Notes under the pieces: generated by a model
The model's database searches: none
What the model saw: only the letters and a program-made list of their open reading frames with translations
What the model was told of the DNA's origin: nothing
Translations under genes and position numbers: made by a program
Shown here: piece by piece, positions 1 through 8,044 of the stretch
Position numbering within the stretch: position 1 is the stretch's first letter
Layout of the letters: every line of letters starts with the position of its first letter
Assembly: GCA_030646255.1 (NCBI GenBank)
Contig: JAUSNF010000021.1
Span: 9,340-73,339 of the forward strand
DNA length: 64,000 nucleotides
Reading direction: 5' to 3'
Source: Candidatus Burarchaeum sp.
GTDB taxonomy: Archaea > Micrarchaeota > Micrarchaeia > Burarchaeales > Burarchaeaceae

Positions 1-112
1 TCTGCAAAGCAGGATACTCGTAGGTGTAGAATATGCGGTCCAACCTGGCGCCTTCCACGAAGCACCAGACTTCAACCCTCTTCCCTGTAGCTTCTTTCAG
101 GCGCACCGCCAT
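1..112 (-). CDS. Partial CDS (N-terminal 37 aa: MAVRLKEATGKRVEVWCFVEGARLDRIFYTYEYPALQ...), continues beyond window start; hypothetical
   Basis: Manual reverse-complement translation from ATG (complement of 110-112) is open to position 1 with protein-like composition; not in the ORF track because it is truncated. Confidence 0.3.
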   Translation of the reverse strand, partial: MAVRLKEATGKRVEVWCFVEGARLDRIFYTYEYPALQ

Positions 113-252
113 GTCAGCATAGCGCACTGAACAACTTCGGGTGCGCGGAAGCTGCCGGCTTGAGCCGGTAGAGGAGCGCACCCAGCAGCTTCCCGATTTC
201 TGGCCGGGCCAGAAATGGGCCCATTGCTCGAAGCGTCGAGCAATCGGGCCGC

Positions 253-684
253 CTAAAGTCCATACACGCCGGAAGCTGAGGGCTTTAGCCCGCAGTTGTT
301 CACGGAGTACGCGCCCCAGATGGCATCTGCCTGCGCAAAGGTTACCGGGTAGGGGCCAGCATACGAAACACCGTAAATCACTGCCTTGCCGTCCTTCGGC
401 GAGGCCCTTTCGTACCAGTGCTCCCGCGCGTTCATCTCAAAGTAGGCGGGATATTGGAGCGAAGACTGGGTGCCTTCATCCCATATGGCCTTCTGCACCG
501 AGCCATTGCCCGCATAGGCATTGATGGCGTCCAGCAGCCTCACAAGGCTTCCATGGTTGCCAGTGCCCGACCAGAAGCCCATGTGCACGGGTTTATAAGG
601 ATTGCTTTCCCTACTCATATCAGTGGGTAAGTCCTGGGGTGCTGGTGCACCTTGAGGTGCACATTCGTCAACTCCAGGGTCCAC
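253..684 (-). CDS. Hypothetical GC-rich ORF; HWYER and GNHG motifs are faintly metallophosphoesterase-like and it may be a 3' remnant
   Basis: 143-aa ORF with a GTG start, in the same frame as and separated only by the TAG stop from the upstream DUF3800 gene; sharp GC rise relative to 691-1320. Confidence 0.25.
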   Translation of the reverse strand: MDPGVDECAPQGAPAPQDLPTDMSRESNPYKPVHMGFWSGTGNHGSLVRLLDAINAYAGNGSVQKAIWDEGTQSSLQYPAYFEMNAREHWYERASPKDGKAVIYGVSYAGPYPVTFAQADAIWGAYSVNNCGLKPSASGVYGL

Positions 685-690
685 TAAACG

Positions 691-1320
691 CTACTTTTCC
701 CAAAGCGGTATGACGCTAGTTTTGCCCTCTATTATTTTGAAGTAGGAATCATCCCCAATGCTGAACTTCCTGTTCACTGCCCAGGCTACGAAATCAACGG
801 CCTGCAGCGCCCTATCTTCATATCCATGCAGGCCTTTTATCTGAAGCCCCTTTTGCGGGAAGGCCTCCTTGAATTTGCCGCATACGTATTCCTCAAACTC
901 CCTGCTCAGCAGCCTGTTGGTTTCCCGCTTTTCATAAACGATCGAAACCTCAGCGCACTCTTCTATCTCCATGGTCTGCAGCAGTATTCCTGCAATGTAG
1001 CTGTAAAGCCTGACTTTTTTATCGTATAACTCTGGGCGTATTTTCTGTTTGTCCACCACTATTGTGGCCAGCCTGCAGTCCATCTCGTTTATGGCCTTAA
1101 GGACATAGCGCCTTATTTCCTCATCTGAATTGTTCGCCTTTATCTGCGGAAGGCTGGAAAGCCTCTTGTTCAGCCGCCGCTCCCGTATTCTTTTCATCTT
1201 GTTCTGTATTGGTTTCGGGTCTCCTGTAATTAGTGCGGATATGTTGAAGTATTTGCTTCCGTGCGTTCCCAGGTCTCCACTTTCATCGACAAAAAGGTAT
1301 AGGCATATTGCATTCTCCAT
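691..1320 (-). CDS. DUF3800-family protein (defence/abortive-infection-associated)
   Basis: N-terminal LYLFVDESGDLG motif typical of DUF3800, ~210 aa, AT-richer than flanks. Confidence 0.6.
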   Translation of the reverse strand: MENAICLYLFVDESGDLGTHGSKYFNISALITGDPKPIQNKMKRIRERRLNKRLSSLPQIKANNSDEEIRRYVLKAINEMDCRLATIVVDKQKIRPELYDKKVRLYSYIAGILLQTMEIEECAEVSIVYEKRETNRLLSREFEEYVCGKFKEAFPQKGLQIKGLHGYEDRALQAVDFVAWAVNRKFSIGDDSYFKIIEGKTSVIPLWEK

Positions 1321-1363
1321 AGTAGCGCCATAAATGAACCTTTTGCCGAAGCTTATAAACCAC

Positions 1364-1401
1364 CCGAGACCGGGGAGCGGGTGACTTCCTTACTTCTCCC
1401 C
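1364..1401. repeat. Direct repeat copy A (core GGGGAGCGGGTGACTTCC)
   Basis: 16-bp identical core plus similar flanks with copy at 2841-2879. Confidence 0.5.
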
Positions 1402-1465
1402 TATGGGATCTTCGCCGCCCGAGTTGATGTAAAGGTTTTTATACCTGCCAAAGGAAAGGAAAAGC

Positions 1466-1693
1466 ATGAAGAACCTCGGGCTTACAGCCGTAATCTGGAA
1501 GGAAGGAAAGCACTACGTTTCGCTCTGCCCGCAGCTCGATGTTTCGAGCTTCGGCTCCACAAAGGCCGAAGCCATCGAGAACCTCAAGGAAGCGGCATCC
1601 CTTTATCTTGAGTCGGCAAAGCAGGTGAAGCTTCCCCTGCCTGCCAGCGTAGTTTACAAGAAATTCGTGCTGCCTCTTAAACTGGCTCAATAG
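1466..1693 (+). CDS. hicB: HicB-like (UPF0150) antitoxin, short form
   Basis: 75 aa; motif ...KEGKHYVSLCPQLD...GSTKAEAIENLKEAASLYLE matches the HicB N-domain; 10 bp upstream of hicA. Confidence 0.6.
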   Translation: MKNLGLTAVIWKEGKHYVSLCPQLDVSSFGSTKAEAIENLKEAASLYLESAKQVKLPLPASVVYKKFVLPLKLAQ

Positions 1694-1702
1694 GGCGGTC
1701 CC

Positions 1703-1936
1703 ATGGCCGGGCTGCGGAACATAACTTCGAAGCAGATGGTCGAGTTCCTGAAATCAAAGGGATTCTCGGAACTGCGCCAGAAGGGAAGCCATCTCTCGAT
1801 GTTTTCCCCTTCAACCAAGCACCTCACCGTAGTTCCCATGCACGGGACAAAAGAAATACCAATAGGCACAATTCTTTCAATTCTCCGCTCAGCGGGCTTG
1901 TCGCGAAAAGAGCTCGAGGAATTTTTAGGAAGATGA
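1703..1936 (+). CDS. hicA: HicA mRNA-interferase toxin
   Basis: 77 aa; KGSHLSMFSP...VPMHGTKEIPIGTILSILRSAGL matches the YcfA/HicA signature. Confidence 0.7.
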   Translation: MAGLRNITSKQMVEFLKSKGFSELRQKGSHLSMFSPSTKHLTVVPMHGTKEIPIGTILSILRSAGLSRKELEEFLGR

Positions 1937-2062
1937 TGCTAAGCGGCTCACCGCCCGATAGTTTCAAGCCGCGTTACCTTTCCTGCCCTTGCCTCTGCCT
2001 TAAGCTTGCGCAGTTCCGCCATCTCTGCCTTGCTGAGGGTTATCTCATGCACGAGCTCGCCC

Positions 2063-2134
2063 CTAATACTTCTGCCTATACGCCTTCTTTTTCTCAACGC
2101 GCTGGTACTTGGTCTGGAACTTCTTCTTGCTCAT
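2063..2134 (-). CDS. Micro-ORF copy 1, 23 aa basic peptide MSKKKFQTKYQRVEKKKAYRQKY
   Basis: Paralogue at 5792-5863; differences between copies are mostly synonymous or conservative; G-rich RBS-like GGGGGG about 8 nt upstream and an AT-rich box further upstream. Confidence 0.4.
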   Translation of the reverse strand: MSKKKFQTKYQRVEKKKAYRQKY

Positions 2135-2180
2135 GCGAATCCCCCCATGCCTATTCTCTGCCGCATCTTCTATTATATCA

Positions 2181-2444
2181 CTATATGCCCGTCCACTCCT
2201 CATAATCTTTATGCGTGCCTATGAAAACAAGTGTTCTTACTGCGGCATCCTTGTCCTCGTGATAGCAGAGTCGGTACTGACCGATTTCGCAAACGCAGAT
2301 TGGAAGCCCCTGCTTCAGGTGCCTTGCAGAAATGCCGCCCGCAAGCTGCTCTATCTTCTTCATCACCCTCACTTTCATTCCCTTGTCTAGCTTCGAGAAA
2401 CAAGCGTCCCAGGCAGGATGGAACCATATCTCCCAGGCGCTCAT
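2181..2444 (-). CDS. RelE/ParE-superfamily toxin
   Basis: 87 aa; ...GQYRLCYHEDKDAAVRTLVFIGTHKDYEEW pattern; 4-nt overlap with the upstream antitoxin. Confidence 0.65.
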   Translation of the reverse strand: MSAWEIWFHPAWDACFSKLDKGMKVRVMKKIEQLAGGISARHLKQGLPICVCEIGQYRLCYHEDKDAAVRTLVFIGTHKDYEEWTGI

Positions 2445-2713
2445 TCAAAGGCCTCCGGGTATTTGCGCCTGACATCTGCCATTGTGAGTGCCTTCTTCTT
2501 TCCGCTCCTGAGCTCCTGCATCATGGCCTGCGCCTTTGCTGCAGCCAGCTCATCCATCACTTCCTCCCTGCTCTTTATCATGTGGTATTCCTTGCCTAGC
2601 GCGAGTATGCCCGCCCTTACTGCCTCATTCTTGGTCTTGAAAAAGCCGGCTTCCACTAGGTGCTTGAGCGTTTCTTCTACGGGACCTTCCAGCCTTACTA
2701 GTAATTCCGACAT
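2441..2713 (-). CDS. ParD/CopG-type ribbon-helix-helix antitoxin
   Basis: 90 aa; N-terminal LVRLEGPVEETLKHLVEAGFFKTKNEAVRAGILAL RHH-like; directly precedes the toxin. Confidence 0.55.
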   Translation of the reverse strand: MSELLVRLEGPVEETLKHLVEAGFFKTKNEAVRAGILALGKEYHMIKSREEVMDELAAAKAQAMMQELRSGKKKALTMADVRRKYPEAFE

Positions 2714-2840
2714 TTTACCACCTGTCTTAGTTATATATCAGATTGATATATAAACATATCACTTTGATATACCTGTTCAAGCTATGCATCATTCCTGCTT
2801 CCGCTCTCCTTCAAAGAATATTGGGCATTTAAAGCCTCGG

Positions 2841-2879
2841 AGAGTGGGGAGCGGGTGACTTGCCCTACCTTTTCTTTCC
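2841..2879. repeat. Direct repeat copy B (core GGGGAGCGGGTGACTTGCC), overlaps the Fic stop codon
   Basis: Matches 1364-1401. Confidence 0.5.
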
Positions 2880-3809
2880 AAGCATCCTCTTCAGTGCCTT
2901 ATACTCCTTCAGCAGCAGATTCAGCGTGGGCCTGAGGTCGTGCCCGTGCTCGTACTTCTGCAACGCCGCATAATACTCGCTCCTGTGCTTCATCTCAATG
3001 TTCACCGGCGGCAGGCCGTTCTTCAGCAGCATGTTGTTCAGCAAAAGCCTACCTACCCGGCCGTTACCGTCCTGGAACGGGTGAATGTTCTCGAACTGAT
3101 TGTGAATGACTGCAGCCAGCACGAGCGGAGGGTACCTGCGCCTGTTCTTGGAATACCAGCGCACCAGCTCGAACAGCAGGCTCCTGACCTGCGAGGAAGG
3201 CGCTCCCTGATGCACAATCCTGCGCGCGCCGTCCACCACCGCCACTTCAACGCCCGGCGGCCTGAGCTTGCCTGCAAAGGGCTTCGAGTTTCCGAAAACA
3301 AGCCTATGAAGCTCGAGGATGAGCGGCAGGGAGATATGCTCCTTGGTCTTCCTGATGAACGCAATCGCATTGGCGACCCCATAGGTTTCCGATATCTCCT
3401 CCTTCGGCTTGTCCGGCCAGTTGTCTTTTTCCAATATTTCTTCAACTTCCTTGTAGCTGACAGTGGAACCTTCGATGGCGTTGGTGTCATAGGCGAAGGA
3501 TTCGACGAATTTCTGCCAGTCTTCTTCTGACAGGTGCGCTATTCTGATTTCCCCCATCGCCTCGAGCGTGCGAAGCTCCTTCAGCTCTTGCGGTGAGAGA
3601 GCGGCTTCAAGCGGGTCCCGCATGCCTGCCTGCGCGCTGATTTTGGCCGTTAGCTTTGCTTCGGCCATGCGCTTAGCTTCCGCAAGCTCGTCGGGGCTGA
3701 GGTTCTCGCCGAGATAGATGCGGAGCTTCCTCACCTTGCCGCCCTTCCGGTACGAGTGTGCGAGATAGTATTTTTTCCCTCCCCTCAGTTTCCTAATTTC
3801 GACGTGCAT
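2865..3809 (-). CDS. fic: Fic/Doc-family protein (AMPylase-type)
   Basis: HPFQDGNGRVGR Fic motif, 314 aa. Confidence 0.85.
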   Translation of the reverse strand: MHVEIRKLRGGKKYYLAHSYRKGGKVRKLRIYLGENLSPDELAEAKRMAEAKLTAKISAQAGMRDPLEAALSPQELKELRTLEAMGEIRIAHLSEEDWQKFVESFAYDTNAIEGSTVSYKEVEEILEKDNWPDKPKEEISETYGVANAIAFIRKTKEHISLPLILELHRLVFGNSKPFAGKLRPPGVEVAVVDGARRIVHQGAPSSQVRSLLFELVRWYSKNRRRYPPLVLAAVIHNQFENIHPFQDGNGRVGRLLLNNMLLKNGLPPVNIEMKHRSEYYAALQKYEHGHDLRPTLNLLLKEYKALKRMLGKKR

Positions 3810-3816
3810 GATGCTA

Positions 3817-3932
3817 TTAGGTGACTACATTTTATAAACATTTGCATTTAGGTGACCACACTCACGTCGTAAGCGGGCCGGCTTTAGGTGACTACACATA
3901 CGTCGTAAGCAAGCGCGTTTGGGTGACTACAC
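3817..3932. repeat. Four iteron-like direct repeats T(T/A)(A/G)GGTGAC(T/C)ACA, spaced 32-36 bp, plus 2x CGTCGTAAGC
   Basis: Read directly at about 3817, 3848, 3884 and 3919; lies between the divergent fic start and the helicase gene. Confidence 0.7.
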
Positions 3933-4179
3933 ACGCACATTTTGACGCCTAAATGCGTGCCTAAAAAAACGGCGTGGATTTTACCACACATTTTTCCATT
4001 TCAATGTAAGCCAATACATCGCTCATTTCTTCCCCGCCGCGTCCCCTACGCCTTCCTCCCGCTGTCGTAACTCCACCGCCTTTTTAACAATTGACTTTCC
4101 ATACGCATCTGCGATCAGCAGGTGGGATATTGGTCGAGCGGTATGAAGAACCTAGCGTGATTTAGGGGATGGCTTCGTT

Positions 4180-5682
4180 ATGGGTAGTGCAGCAGCGTAT
4201 TCAACCAATTCATACTCTAGCGCGCCCAAATCCCTTTTGGAACGGCTCGAACCGCTAAACAAAAGAATTAGCGAGCGCATAGAAAGAGAGAGGCAAGAAG
4301 ATGTGCGCACACCCTTGGCCATGGGGCACTCCAGACGTGTTCACAAGACTAGAATAGTTAGGGACGTAATCGGGACAATGACGCAGTTTCCCCTGCGCCT
4401 CGGTTGGGCATTAACGATACACAAAAGCCAGGGCCTTACTTTGCGGCATGTGTGCCTGGATTTTGGCCATAAAGCTCCCTGGGCCCATGGGCAAACTTAT
4501 GTCGCACTGAGCAGATGCACTGGTTTAGACGGACTTTTTCTGAAGGCGCCCATCAGCGATTCCAATGTAATTGTTGATGATCGGATCCTTGATTTTCTCA
4601 ATGATGCCGGTTTGGGCGATTCTCCTGAACTGGACGGCAATTCAACCAGTTTTTATGCACCCCGTGCTTCTGAAACTAGCACGGGCAGCAAGGAAGAACT
4701 GCTTGAACTGCTGGAAACATCAAAAGACTCATTTTTCATAACGGGCCCTGCCGGAAGCGGCAAATCAACCCTAATCAGGGAATTCGTCAATAATACTGAG
4801 AAAAATTCAGTAATCGTGACGTTTACTGGAATAGCTGCCATCAATGTCGGAGGCCAGACTATCAATTCTTTCTTCAGAATCCCGCCTTTCAATTCCAAAA
4901 CTAGGGAGGCAAAGCCCCTTTCGAAAGAAGAGTGCGAGCTGTACCGGAGCATCGACATCATCCTGATAGATGAAATTTCAATGGTCCGCGCGGATTTATT
5001 TGATGAGATGGATGAACGGATGCGCGAGGCCAAACAAAATGACAGCCCATTTGGCGGAGTCCGCATGCTTCTTTTCGGTGACTATTACCAGCTGCCGCCA
5101 ATAGACGATGTTGGTGAAACCATTGCAAAAGGATACGGAACTGAGTATGCCTTCAGCTCCAATGCCTATCGTTCCATGAACATAAAAAATATAAAACTCC
5201 TGAAAATCCACCGCCAAAAAGAGGATTCCATTTTCTTGACGTGCCTTAATGCCATACGCACCGGAACCCGCAGAGAGCAGTTGAGCTCTGCGCTGGCTCA
5301 CATTAATGCCCGTTTCGGAGTAACACCGCAAGAAACTGCGGCCCGGTCGCTGGTAACTTTAACTACGACTAGGCAGCATGCAAAACAGATCAATGAAACA
5401 ATGCTGGGACAATTATCCGGTGAAGAATACCACTATTCTGCCACAGTAACTGGAAAGTTTCCGATTAAGGAAAATAGGATTCCTGCCGAGCTGGATTTAG
5501 TTCTAAAAGCGGGTGCGCGGGTAATTTTTACACAAAATGACCCGAATCATCAATGGGTGAATGGCAGCAGGGGAATAGTGACTAAGCTTACTGAAGATTC
5601 AATGAATATAAAATTAGACGACGGAACACTGGTTTCACCCAATCGTTTTCAATTTGAGATGTTCGAGCATAAGCTCGGTTAA
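4180..5682 (+). CDS. PIF1-like SF1B helicase, circularly permuted ORF
   Basis: Walker A GPAGSGKST, motif Ia GGQTINSFF, motif II ILIDEISMV and motif III LLFGDYYQLPPI at aa ~190-310, but the normally C-terminal motifs QFPLRLGWALTIHKSQG and GQTYVALSR sit at aa ~68-110; lower GC. Confidence 0.7.
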   Translation: MGSAAAYSTNSYSSAPKSLLERLEPLNKRISERIERERQEDVRTPLAMGHSRRVHKTRIVRDVIGTMTQFPLRLGWALTIHKSQGLTLRHVCLDFGHKAPWAHGQTYVALSRCTGLDGLFLKAPISDSNVIVDDRILDFLNDAGLGDSPELDGNSTSFYAPRASETSTGSKEELLELLETSKDSFFITGPAGSGKSTLIREFVNNTEKNSVIVTFTGIAAINVGGQTINSFFRIPPFNSKTREAKPLSKEECELYRSIDIILIDEISMVRADLFDEMDERMREAKQNDSPFGGVRMLLFGDYYQLPPIDDVGETIAKGYGTEYAFSSNAYRSMNIKNIKLLKIHRQKEDSIFLTCLNAIRTGTRREQLSSALAHINARFGVTPQETAARSLVTLTTTRQHAKQINETMLGQLSGEEYHYSATVTGKFPIKENRIPAELDLVLKAGARVIFTQNDPNHQWVNGSRGIVTKLTEDSMNIKLDDGTLVSPNRFQFEMFEHKLG

Positions 5683-5791
5683 ACTCGTCAGAGGCTGAAG
5701 CACCCTTAAAGCTACTTTCTAGCCGTACTGCTCCTTAATTCCTCCCAGTTGCATTCGCAGTTCCCACCAGCCAGCAGTCTGCCTTCCAATC

Positions 5792-5863
5792 CTAATACTT
5801 CTGCCTATATGCCTTCTTTTTTTCCAGGCGCTGGTATTTTGCCTGGAACTTCTTCTTGCTCAT
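5792..5863 (-). CDS. Micro-ORF copy 2, MSKKKFQAKYQRLEKKKAYRQKY
   Basis: Paralogue of 2063-2134; RBS-like AGGGG upstream; immediately downstream of mscL on the same strand. Confidence 0.4.
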   Translation of the reverse strand: MSKKKFQAKYQRLEKKKAYRQKY

Positions 5864-5992
5864 GCGTATCAACCCCTATCTTCTACGTCTTCTCTACTTT
5901 TTATCAACAATCCTTATCAAAAACGGTATCAGGATGTACAGCGTCGTGCTCCATGTGCTGCCCGCCATTGCAACCAAAATTGCACCTCTCCA

Positions 5993-6319
5993 TCACTTCT
6001 TTTTCTTCCCTGTCGCTTCCTCCTTCATAATCAACTTCACTATGGTGAAGACTACGAGCGCGATTATCATAAAGTCTATCAGCGCGCCCACGAAGTCGCC
6101 TATCATGAACTTTGCAGAACCTATCTGCAGGGTGGCCGTGCGCCAGTCTCCGCCAGGTATGAGCACGCCGATTATGGGCATTATAATGTCAGTCACAAGG
6201 GCAGTAACCATTTTGGTCGAGGCCGCGCCTATGACAAATGCAACTGCCAGTCCTATTACCTGATATTTCTTCAGGAACTCCGCAAATTCGGACAAAACGC
6301 TCATGCGACCACCATGCAT
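5993..6319 (-). CDS. mscL: Large-conductance mechanosensitive channel MscL
   Basis: ...FAEFLKKYQVIGLAVAFVIGAASTKMVTALVTDIIMPIIG... MscL signature, 108 aa. Confidence 0.8.
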   Translation of the reverse strand: MHGGRMSVLSEFAEFLKKYQVIGLAVAFVIGAASTKMVTALVTDIIMPIIGVLIPGGDWRTATLQIGSAKFMIGDFVGALIDFMIIALVVFTIVKLIMKEEATGKKKK

Positions 6320-6379
6320 GAGCTCGGAAAGCGGGTTTATAATTATTTATACTTTACTTGAAATGCATAGTCAGAAGAG

Positions 6380-7222
6380 GTGGTTGTCTTGAAGGGAATT
6401 TACTTATTCGCGTTGTTGGCCGTTTTCAGTCTTCTTATGGCAGGCTGCATTAACCTGCCGGGCCAGCAGGCTCAGCCAGCGCCTGAAAAGAATGCGCAGA
6501 CTGGCACCAACTTCGAGATCGAGCTCTACAAGGCGCAGGTGGACAAGGCAGCCCTGCAGGAGAAGTATGATGCTGCAACGGCAGACCTAAGGCAGTGCCT
6601 GGCAGACACGGCCGCATGCGAGGGCAAGCCCGCCGAGAAGTGCCCTGCACCTGAGAACTGCGATGCCATAAAGGCGGAAAGGGATTCTGCGCTTTCAAGG
6701 CTCTCAACCTGCATAGACGAGAAGGCCGCCATAGCCGGCTCGACGGGAACGTGCAATTCAGCTCTTTCAACGTGCCTTTCCGACAAGTCAGGTTTGACAA
6801 CCTCGCTTGCAACATGCACTGCGGACAAGAGCGCCCTGCAGCTTAGTCTAACTGCGGCGCAGAATGCAGTGCCGAACACTACGGTATGGCACTATGCACC
6901 CGGCAATTTAGGCGCTGAGGGCGGCACCGGCTACAGGACAACAGACTACAAGGTGCCCAGCAGCCTGAAGAAGGCGCTCATAGGGCTGGATTATTCAGGA
7001 GGCAGTGACGCGTTCTTCGGGCCAGGCGTAGTGTCCGGCCTAGTGAGGTGGTACACCATGACCTCGGTGGACGGCGTGCGCTTCAGCTCGGACATAGATG
7101 ACACTGTCGTTATCGACCTGTCCGTTGGCAATCCTCTGAAGGTGAAGACAGTCGAGTTCGCGGCAGGCACTTCAAAGGAGGGCTTTGCACTAAAACGCGT
7201 GATTGCAATTTACATCCAATGA
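6380..7222 (+). CDS. Putative secreted lipoprotein, Cys-rich with a coiled-coil
   Basis: Signal peptide followed by the LLMAGC lipobox-like motif; no recognisable domain. Confidence 0.4.
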   Translation: MVVLKGIYLFALLAVFSLLMAGCINLPGQQAQPAPEKNAQTGTNFEIELYKAQVDKAALQEKYDAATADLRQCLADTAACEGKPAEKCPAPENCDAIKAERDSALSRLSTCIDEKAAIAGSTGTCNSALSTCLSDKSGLTTSLATCTADKSALQLSLTAAQNAVPNTTVWHYAPGNLGAEGGTGYRTTDYKVPSSLKKALIGLDYSGGSDAFFGPGVVSGLVRWYTMTSVDGVRFSSDIDDTVVIDLSVGNPLKVKTVEFAAGTSKEGFALKRVIAIYIQ

Positions 7223-7327
7223 GCGCTTCCAGTCATTTGCGCGCAAGCTTCAGGCCTATGAATGCAAGAAGCGCCAGCACGATTAGCGCGCCCACTCACG
7301 TGCAGCTTGCAGTGCCTGCAGAAAATC

Positions 7328-8044
7328 CTATGCGCGCATTTCCCTGTGGCGCACAAACGCCGCACCGGCAATGAAAAGCAGCCCGAATGCCGGCAGGCAG
7401 CATACCGAGCCCCCGCCCTGGTCCTGCTCAATCTTCTGGAAAGCCTGCTTTAGCTCGTCCTTATTCTCCGCAGTATAATACTTGCCTCCGCCCGCAGCTG
7501 CAATCTGCTGGTGCTGCGCCTTGGCAGCCGGGTCATCGGCGAGCGAGTAGCTGATGACGTTTATCACTGCTATTCCCTCATCCGTAGTCTTCTGGGCCTC
7601 GAGCACCGGGTCCCCGCCGCAGTTCTCCTCGCCGTCAGTAAGCAGTATTATGGTACCCTTCCCGCCCATCTCGCTCTTCACGTACTCCCTTCCCTCTGCA
7701 ATCGCCTCTGCTATGGGCGTCCAGTCTCCGGTGCCTATGCCGTTTATAGAGCTTCTCAGCTCCTGCTTGTTCGAAGTGAGCTCCCTTATCACGCGTATGT
7801 CGCCTGTCTGCGGGTTCCCTCCGTCATCGCACGTGTGGAATTTCATGACGGCGAACTGGTCTCCCTGCGATGCATCTATGAAATCTATGGCCGCGGCCTT
7901 GGCCGCCTCCAGCTTCGTCTCCCCGCTGTCCAGGTAGTCGTCCATGCTGGTGCTGGCATCCATTATGACAAGGAAGGAGCCTGCCGATACTGTGGCTGCG
8001 AGAAGCAGCAAGAATAGTCCTGTTTTTGCAATATATCTTTTCAT
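7328..8044 (-). CDS. Secreted von Willebrand factor A domain protein with a C-terminal membrane anchor
   Basis: Signal peptide, MIDAS DASTSMDD, C-terminal LPAFGLLFIAGAAFVRHR PGF-CTERM-like tail. Confidence 0.7.
   Translation of the reverse strand: MKRYIAKTGLFLLLLAATVSAGSFLVIMDASTSMDDYLDSGETKLEAAKAAAIDFIDASQGDQFAVMKFHTCDDGGNPQTGDIRVIRELTSNKQELRSSINGIGTGDWTPIAEAIAEGREYVKSEMGGKGTIILLTDGEENCGGDPVLEAQKTTDEGIAVINVISYSLADDPAAKAQHQQIAAAGGGKYYTAENKDELKQAFQKIEQDQGGGSVCCLPAFGLLFIAGAAFVRHREMRA

Follow-up and report, generated by a model that had tools for sequence, protein, structure and literature searches.

Fic AMPylases are widespread, and their control in archaea is essentially unstudied. In type II toxin-antitoxin systems such as Phd/Doc, the DNA-binding domain of the antitoxin represses the operon. 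The archaeal repressors MDR1, Phr, LrpA, and TrmB prevent the recruitment of RNA polymerase by occupying sites at the TATA box or immediately after it. A self-repressing Fic protein with a fused DNA-binding domain is already known from bacteria. In Yersinia pseudotuberculosis, the class II Fic toxin CccR carries an HTH domain at its C-terminus and represses transcription of its own gene through the operator AGATAATCAT-N26-ATGATAATCT (PMC9755527). Fic-HTH fusions were long ago proposed to regulate fic expression, and the control of Fic/Doc toxins by a DNA-binding element from the same genetic unit has been discussed (PMC2686095).

Here, we analyzed a 64-kb stretch of DNA (the window) on a chromosomal contig from a Micrarchaeota (DPANN) archaeon, Candidatus Burarchaeum. 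A plasmid or viral source was rejected, as a blastn search against plasmids gave only a 57-nt match to the Fic core and close orthologues were absent from viral contigs. The window carries a fic gene of 314 codons (2865–3809, minus strand; Pfam Fic, E = 1.2e-18), preceded by an array of short direct repeats; the encoded protein shares 100% identity with one annotated in Candidatus Burarchaeum sp. We interpret the repeats as a promoter-flanking operator of fic and the N-terminal domain of Fic itself as their most likely binder, which would result in autoregulation, and we assign this reading a probability of roughly 0.7 on the basis of the sequence comparisons described below. A self-repressing Fic is not new in itself; a box-TATA-box operator spanning archaeal phyla, an unannotated N-terminal domain co-varying with it, and the reuse of this domain on other enzymes appear new. 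Full-text searches of the literature yielded no description of this operator or of the N-terminal domain.

The array comprises four plus-strand copies of TT[AG]GGTGAC[CT]ACA at 3817–3829, 3848–3860, 3884–3896, and 3919–3931. The initial sequence-only reading had located all four and given their spacing as 32–36 bp; the start-to-start distances are 31, 36, and 35 bp. Four copies of the 10-mer GGTGACYACA are present in the window, always on one strand and within 3820–3931, against a mean of 0.09 copies in shuffled sequences, none of which (0/100) reached four copies. In the direction of fic, the box reads TGTAGTCACC, with the consensus TGTrGnCACC. The bare heptamer GGTGACY is not enriched across the window (8 observed vs. 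8.35 expected), although seven of the eight sites fall within the first 5.1 kb. The heptamer count, which had been put forward as a check on the repeats, came out at background and would thus have led us to dismiss a real feature. Further good boxes were not found in the 64-kb window, leaving a wider regulon unsupported within it.

The proximal box 1 (3820–3829, minus strand, TGTAGTCACC in the fic direction) lies at -20 to -11 from the fic ATG, so that 10 nt separate the end of the box from the start codon. The TATA box of the fic promoter, TTTATAAA, is found at 3831–3838 on the minus strand (-29 to -22 from the ATG). Since the archaeal TATA box is usually centered about 26 bp upstream of the transcription start, the fic mRNA should be leaderless, which would place box 1 between the TATA box and the probable transcription start. 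Box 2, the distal one (3851–3860, minus strand, TGTGGTCACC; -51 to -42), precedes box 1 by 31 bp and lies immediately before the TATA/BRE region. As 31 bp correspond to about three helical turns, the distal and proximal boxes would face the same side of the DNA. This arrangement resembles the sites of MDR1, Phr, LrpA, and TrmB, with the fic proximal box between the TATA box and the start and a second site upstream of the BRE/TATA region. Unlike these dedicated HTH or RHH regulators, the candidate binder of the fic boxes is an enzyme with a new domain.

Two extra boxes, both TGTAGTCACC on the minus strand, follow further upstream: box 3 at 3887–3896 (-87 to -78) and box 4 at 3922–3931 (-122 to -113). 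A 28-nt unit is repeated in tandem (3847–3874 and 3883–3910) with 89% identity, and the tandem duplication of a 35–36-bp unit carried box 2 into box 3. The duplicated unit also holds CGTCGTAAGC, whose two copies at 3865–3874 and 3901–3910 (no strand assigned) belong to one repeat family and confirm the second repeat pair of the sequence-only reading. Since none of the other inspected loci showed CGTCGTAAGC, it probably arose as a side effect of the local tandem duplication. An imperfect inverted repeat, CACGCACATTT ... AAATGCGTGC (window 3925–3968), sits immediately upstream of box 4 and is followed by A7 (T7 on the minus strand); it could act as a terminator or insulator that shields the fic promoter from transcription arriving from the direction of the helicase gene.

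The order of box, TATA box, box, and ATG is not a peculiarity of the window. We profiled one genome per species with the Fic alignment and obtained at least 22 orthologous loci at 46–61% identity; among the matches listed are Bathyarchaeia, Aenigmatarchaeota, Methanosarcinales, Thaumarchaeota/Nitrosopumilales, Woesearchaeota, Pacearchaeota, and Hadarchaeota. A TGTAGTCACC-type box with at most one mismatch is present at -150 to -1 of fic in 21 of the 22 orthologous loci listed and nearly absent from the remainder of these loci of about 8 kb. The repeats are thus kept in homologous loci, where their absence would have told against the sequence-only reading. Three fic loci from Micrarchaeota, a phylum absent from the matches listed, were added through an exact-protein look-up and show the same box pattern. 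Fic orthologues of at least eight archaeal lineages with differing neighbors thus have the box-TATA-box-ATG order, whereas the helicase gene, the RHH gene, and a Rep gene are all missing from the vicinity of these loci. The Fic protein is 55–70% identical across phyla. An alignment of 25 orthologous promoters gives the order distal box, 12–14 nt, TTTAAATA or TTTATAAA, TGTrGnCACC, 8–12 nt, and ATG. The TATA box of the window aligns with TTTAAATA/TTTATAAA in all 25 promoters, and eight bases of the proximal box (T, G, T, G, C, A, C, and C) are each conserved in at least 90% of them. The 31-bp spacing between distal and proximal boxes also recurs in the orthologues.

The number of boxes varies. 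Among 73 promoters of this box type, 37 have two direct boxes and 21 have an inverted box followed by two direct ones, while the window alone has four direct copies. A third direct copy like box 3 was found only in one other locus (L007, at -85), and the third copy is inverted, at about -75, in 21 others. The two distal copies in the window look like a recent local duplication because the four-copy arrangement is unique to it. In a locus labeled "bacterium" (L015), three tandem repeats of about 30 nt with CACGGTGACAC lie upstream of the fic promoter (about 3830–3950).

To the sequence-only reading, the 370-bp gap between the divergent fic (ATG at 3809) and helicase genes (longest ORF starting at 4180) had suggested an operator or an origin layout; its measure of the gap was correct. 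The repeats would then be iterons of a plasmid or chromosomal replication origin, served by the PIF1-like helicase or by a Rep-like initiator. They share with plasmid iterons their multiple direct copies on a single strand, a similar length, and a roughly regular spacing (31–36 bp), and they are situated in a divergent intergenic region beside a helicase gene. Neither a Rep nor an Orc1/Cdc6 gene is adjacent, however, or present within 4 kb, and the conserved link to a replicon or helicase is missing: when we sought the iteron-plus-helicase arrangement in relatives by tblastn, the PIF1-like helicase was absent from every other fic locus fetched to that point. The GC skew, which is often a poor indicator in archaea, is negative throughout 1–8000 without a sign change at the site. 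The repeats flank the TATA box at a fixed distance from the ATG in chromosomal contexts of many phyla, and the four-copy array that recalls iterons is the exception, two or three copies being the rule. We therefore consider an origin extremely improbable, and of the two layouts it is the operator that the fixed TATA/ATG register across phyla supports. For annotation, the lesson is that iteron-like direct repeats beside a helicase gene need not mean an origin.

The helicase gene itself (4180–5682, plus strand) encodes, within one ORF, a complete PIF1/RecD-like protein as a circular permutant with its C-terminal piece preceding the N-terminal one. Residues 58–147 match the last 90 or so residues of normal homologues of about 440 residues, and residues 170–498 match their residues 26–342. 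The permuted order is not shared by any of the best 120 homologues, and the nearest relatives (40–46% identity) include CPR and other bacteria, which also speaks against a conserved origin function. The rearranged gene, apparently of bacterial type, is unique to this genome and could be either a functional permutant or a relic of a tandem duplication. PADLOC assigned RecD-like models to this helicase and SoFic/PDC-S04 models to the Fic protein. Positions 1–5700 of the window constitute an island of toxin-antitoxin and defense type, with DUF3800, HicA and HicB-like, RelE-like/RHH, Fic, and helicase genes. An 85-nt direct repeat with 88% identity (2063–2134 and 5792–5863, both minus strand) brackets the fic-helicase block and encodes two copies of a very basic 23-residue peptide, MSKKKFQ[TA]KYQR[VL]EKKKAYRQKY. 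Two residues differ between the copies, both by conservative replacement (T/A and V/L), a pattern suggestive of a genuine small-protein gene.

Which protein recognizes the boxes? The sequence-only reading had named the RHH antitoxin, Fic, and a Rep-like function as candidates. A separate trans-acting regulator, either the RHH antitoxin (2441–2713) or an unlinked archaeal factor, would leave the N-terminal domain of Fic for target binding or oligomerization. Small RHH or HTH proteins are common operator binders, the RHH gene lies 150 bp past the fic stop codon, and the N-terminal domain of Fic has no recognized DNA-binding fold. Nevertheless, homologues of the RHH, RelE-like, HicA/B, and DUF3800 proteins were detected by tblastn in none of 52 other fic loci; the RHH/RelE-like pair downstream of fic is a separate module. 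The genes around fic are not conserved and differ in every inspected locus; it follows that the recognizer of the boxes travels with fic. One box persists over distant phyla, while each Fic subfamily and each non-Fic protein with the domain has its own box type (see below), so that an unlinked factor would need to co-vary and be co-transferred with every subfamily. We regard a separate regulator as unlikely. Fic is the best supported of the three candidates.

The link between boxes and fic is also evident from the opposite direction. We scanned metagenome contigs blindly for TGTAGTCACC-N19-23-TGTAGTCACC and obtained 87 matches, 57 of them with a TATA-like spacer. The ORF directly after 51 of these 57 encodes the Fic N-terminal domain. 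The window itself holds neither another good box nor a second protein with the N-terminal domain. The only constant partner of the boxes is therefore the gene downstream of them.

The Fic core is that of a class II AMPylase by its motifs, from which AMP transfer is predicted. The catalytic motif HPFQDGNGRVGR, conforming to the HxFx(D/E)GNGRxxR pattern, is invariant in 22 homologues. The inhibitory motif TNAIEG (T109-NAI-E113-G114), matching (S/T)xxxE(G/N), is invariant in the Fic alignment and lies in the same segment as in FICD; FICD/HYPE are the closest solved relatives. Upstream of the core, codons 1–62 (3624–3809, minus strand) encode a basic domain that we propose as the box-binding module. 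AlphaFold models of this domain show antiparallel strands at residues 2–8, 11–22, and 25–35, followed by a long helix at 39–61, with a mean pLDDT of 82 for the isolated domain and values below 50 for the linker segments 62–64 and 85–115. Residues 1–36 include 11 Lys/Arg vs. 2 Asp/Glu, and the domain consensus is MHxEIRKxxxxKKYYLAHSYRKGGKVRKxRVYLG plus the helix. The domain of about 60 residues has no match in Pfam, NCBIfam, or the PDB: Foldseek against the PDB gave no significant match (best E = 0.26), and a profile search against PDB sequences returned nothing. The three-stranded-sheet domains of integrase arm-type and AP2-like proteins show no significant fold or profile similarity to it, with an hhalign probability of 0.09 for the arm domain of lambda Int. 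We think it probable that this domain is what binds the boxes.

This association extends to divergent boxes. Fic relatives of 27–38% identity that possess the N-terminal domain keep the promoter layout and have other repeats at the same position, namely TGTAATGGTA, TGTGCCCATA, TGTAGGTA, TGTGGACAA, or TGTAGCCAT. The distant fic promoters read, for example, TTACCATTACA ... TATA ... TGTAATGGTAA, TATGGGCACA ... TGTGCCCATA, TACCTACA ... TGTAGGTA, and two direct copies of TGTGGACAA. The box copies agree inside each promoter and differ between Fic subfamilies, and the type of box co-varies with strand-2 residues of the N-terminal domain (YYL[AV]HSYR, [FY]YLQHSFR, YY[VI]TKNFR, and others). An exact repeat of at least 9 nt is found in 31 of 45 promoters of the domain-bearing set, compared with 4.5% of random windows from the same loci. 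One locus (L083, 1668–3939) harbors two divergent fic paralogues with a common intergenic region, in which the two TATA boxes are accompanied by different box types: TGTAGCCAT[AT] for the distant paralogue and TGTAGTCACC for the window-type fic.

We also searched a profile of the N-terminal domain alone against 1.84 billion representative proteins and retrieved only 195. Besides Fic proteins and fragments, these comprise one prolyl-tRNA synthetase (ProRS), three PEP-utilizer proteins, and one membrane protein. The genes of these non-Fic proteins, all from other archaea, have TGTA-type boxes around the TATA box of their promoters (L168, 440–600; L167, 1380–1520; L169, 1390–1515; L171, 1400–1515). 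Four TGTAGACGTA-type copies precede the ProRS gene, and TGTGCCCATA precedes one of the PEP-utilizer genes. The membrane protein has a window-type domain (YYLSHSYR) and, upstream of its TATA box, the box of the window in the form CGTAGTCACC-N11-TGTAGTCACC. The box is therefore tied to the N-terminal domain and not to the Fic domain. Part of the correlation between box and domain could reflect co-inheritance instead of recognition because the promoter adjoins the N-terminal codons.

Boxes are not confined to the promoter. Of 59 related genes, 42 have the inverted pair GGTGACTACA-N11-TGTAGTCACC at the fic stop codon, and the TGA of the first arm is often the stop codon itself. In L015, the whole inverted pair of the promoter, including the TATA-like spacer, recurs after the fic stop codon. 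The window retains just past its stop codon a degenerate box, gcAAGTCACC in the fic direction (2854–2863, minus strand; GGTGACT at 2854–2860), which lacks the ACA. This site is the decayed distal arm of the conserved inverted pair. Its three mismatches to the 10-nt box all hit the highly conserved TGT part, for which reason it is probably non-functional.

A second degenerate box, ggAAGTCACC (GGTGACTTCC at 1380–1389, plus strand), likewise without the ACA, has two differences from the 10-nt box. It runs 2 nt past the end of a 37-nt segment (1351–1387, minus strand) that duplicates the fic 3' flank (2825–2861) with 78% identity. The repeat pair that the sequence-only reading had placed near 1364–1401 and 2841–2879, with GGTGACT at its core, corresponds to this 37-nt repeat, inside which the 16-mer GGGGAGCGGGTGACTT is exact at 1372–1387 and 2846–2861. 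A TATA-like element is found in each copy, TTTATAAG in that at 1351–1387. We count the site at 1380 as a local copy of the fic 3' flank, not as an independent good box. The link drawn by the sequence-only reading between the promoter repeats and the site at 2854 is thus real, but the latter has lost the conserved TGT. The two 37-nt copies bracket 1.47 kb with the HicB-like/HicA and RelE-like/RHH genes, and this block looks like an insertion or duplication separating fic from the DUF3800 gene.

Inverted boxes in many loci, at about -75/-53 and at the stop codon, could pair in a transcript, as expected if the repeats acted as RNA, be it a 5' UTR element, a small RNA, or hairpins. The arms at the stop codon do not behave accordingly: none of 12 changes at the variable position is compensated, and only 13 of the 42 pairs are fully complementary. 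All copies in the window are direct, and from locus to locus, direct and inverted copies replace one another. Because the array encloses the TATA box, which is some 22 nt away from the ATG, most boxes are not transcribed with fic. The folding energies are ordinary (z = -0.77 and +0.18), and the sole Rfam match, at 19.8 bits vs. a gathering threshold of 50, is not credible. We consider a function as RNA highly improbable.

The presence of boxes at both ends of the gene, upstream and as the inverted stop-codon pair in 42 of 59 genes, would also suit recombination or transposition sites delimiting a mobile or exchangeable fic cassette, instead of or besides promoter control. The flanking genes differ while Fic is 55–70% identical across phyla. 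Moreover, in two loci with a Fic of another subfamily (L035 and L044), window-type boxes form an inverted pair immediately past the fic stop codon, as if the gene had been swapped; such pairs may be left over from cassette replacement. In L044, a further pair, TATGGGCAC...GTGCCCATA, is of the locus's own type and spans the stop codon, and L031, again of another subfamily, has two copies of TGTGGACAA there. Given these own-type and window-type pairs, the 3' pair may act as a cassette boundary or a looping element. As ends of a mobile cassette, however, the boxes lack an associated recombinase or transposase, and neither a close Fic orthologue on IMG/VR viral contigs nor a pair of empty and filled sites was found. 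Their strict register with the TATA box and the ATG is not required of a recombination site, and the non-Fic domain genes of L167 and L171, the two in which the 3' flank was read, have no 3' boxes. Recombination sites are therefore an unlikely explanation of the boxes, which might nevertheless play this part in addition to promoter control.

The preferred reading, autoregulation by Fic through its N-terminal domain, would operate as follows. Two 10-bp boxes, 31 bp or about three helical turns apart, would sandwich the TATA box on the same DNA face. As Fic accumulates, a dimer or oligomer would occupy the boxes through the N-terminal domains, perhaps cooperatively, and hinder TBP, TFB, and RNA polymerase, that is, the assembly of the pre-initiation complex. 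The outcome would be negative feedback on a potentially toxic AMPylase. Tolerance of direct or inverted boxes would fit a DNA-binding domain on a flexible tether, and the two further upstream copies in this genome would stem from the local 35–36-bp tandem duplication. Repression is the proposed sign of regulation; activation is equally conceivable for the distal box, which lies upstream of the BRE. Simple autorepression does not account for the second box pair at the fic stop codon.

The proposed circuit can be compared with CccR point by point. Both combine in one polypeptide a class II Fic core (S/TxxxEG/N) and a DNA-binding module, putative in the archaeal protein, and in both, 10-bp half-sites 20–26 bp apart straddle the core promoter of their own gene. 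The archaeal counterpart of the CccR operator is GGTGACCACA-N20-TGTGGGCACC around the TATA box in related loci. In contrast to the C-terminal HTH of CccR, the putative module of the archaeal Fic is N-terminal, consists of β-strands and a helix, and has no detectable similarity to HTH domains; the window Fic ends with the Fic core at residue 314. The archaeal promoter is built around a TATA box and is probably leaderless, with two to four boxes in direct or inverted orientation. A further box pair marks the stop codon of many archaeal orthologues, and binding is predicted here. By analogy, the archaeal Fic may work like CccR without being a member of the CccR family. The parallel with Phd/Doc is that a toxic enzyme of the Fic/Doc fold would be restrained by a DNA-binding element of the same unit acting on promoter-overlapping repeats. 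Unlike type II toxin-antitoxin systems, a separate antitoxin gene does not occur next to fic in any examined locus; the Fic polypeptide itself contains the inhibitory helix together with the putative DNA-binding domain.

We further propose, with even odds, that the 60-residue N-terminal module represents an undescribed archaeal family of DNA-binding domains reading 10-bp boxes that begin with TGTA or TGTG. Together with the box-TATA-box promoter, it would form a portable self-regulation cassette on unrelated ATP-using enzymes (Fic, ProRS, and PEP-utilizer) and a membrane protein, and the 3' pair would let the protein bracket the whole fic gene for looping, as a roadblock, or as a cassette boundary for exchange between phyla. 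If this is true, the module would provide a new DNA-binding fold and an archaeal regulator/operator pair with several natural specificity variants. It would also flag the aminoacyl-tRNA synthetase and PEP-utilizer enzymes of DPANN-type archaea as self-regulators at the DNA level, and it would explain how a potentially toxic enzyme moves between archaeal phyla with its own control circuit.
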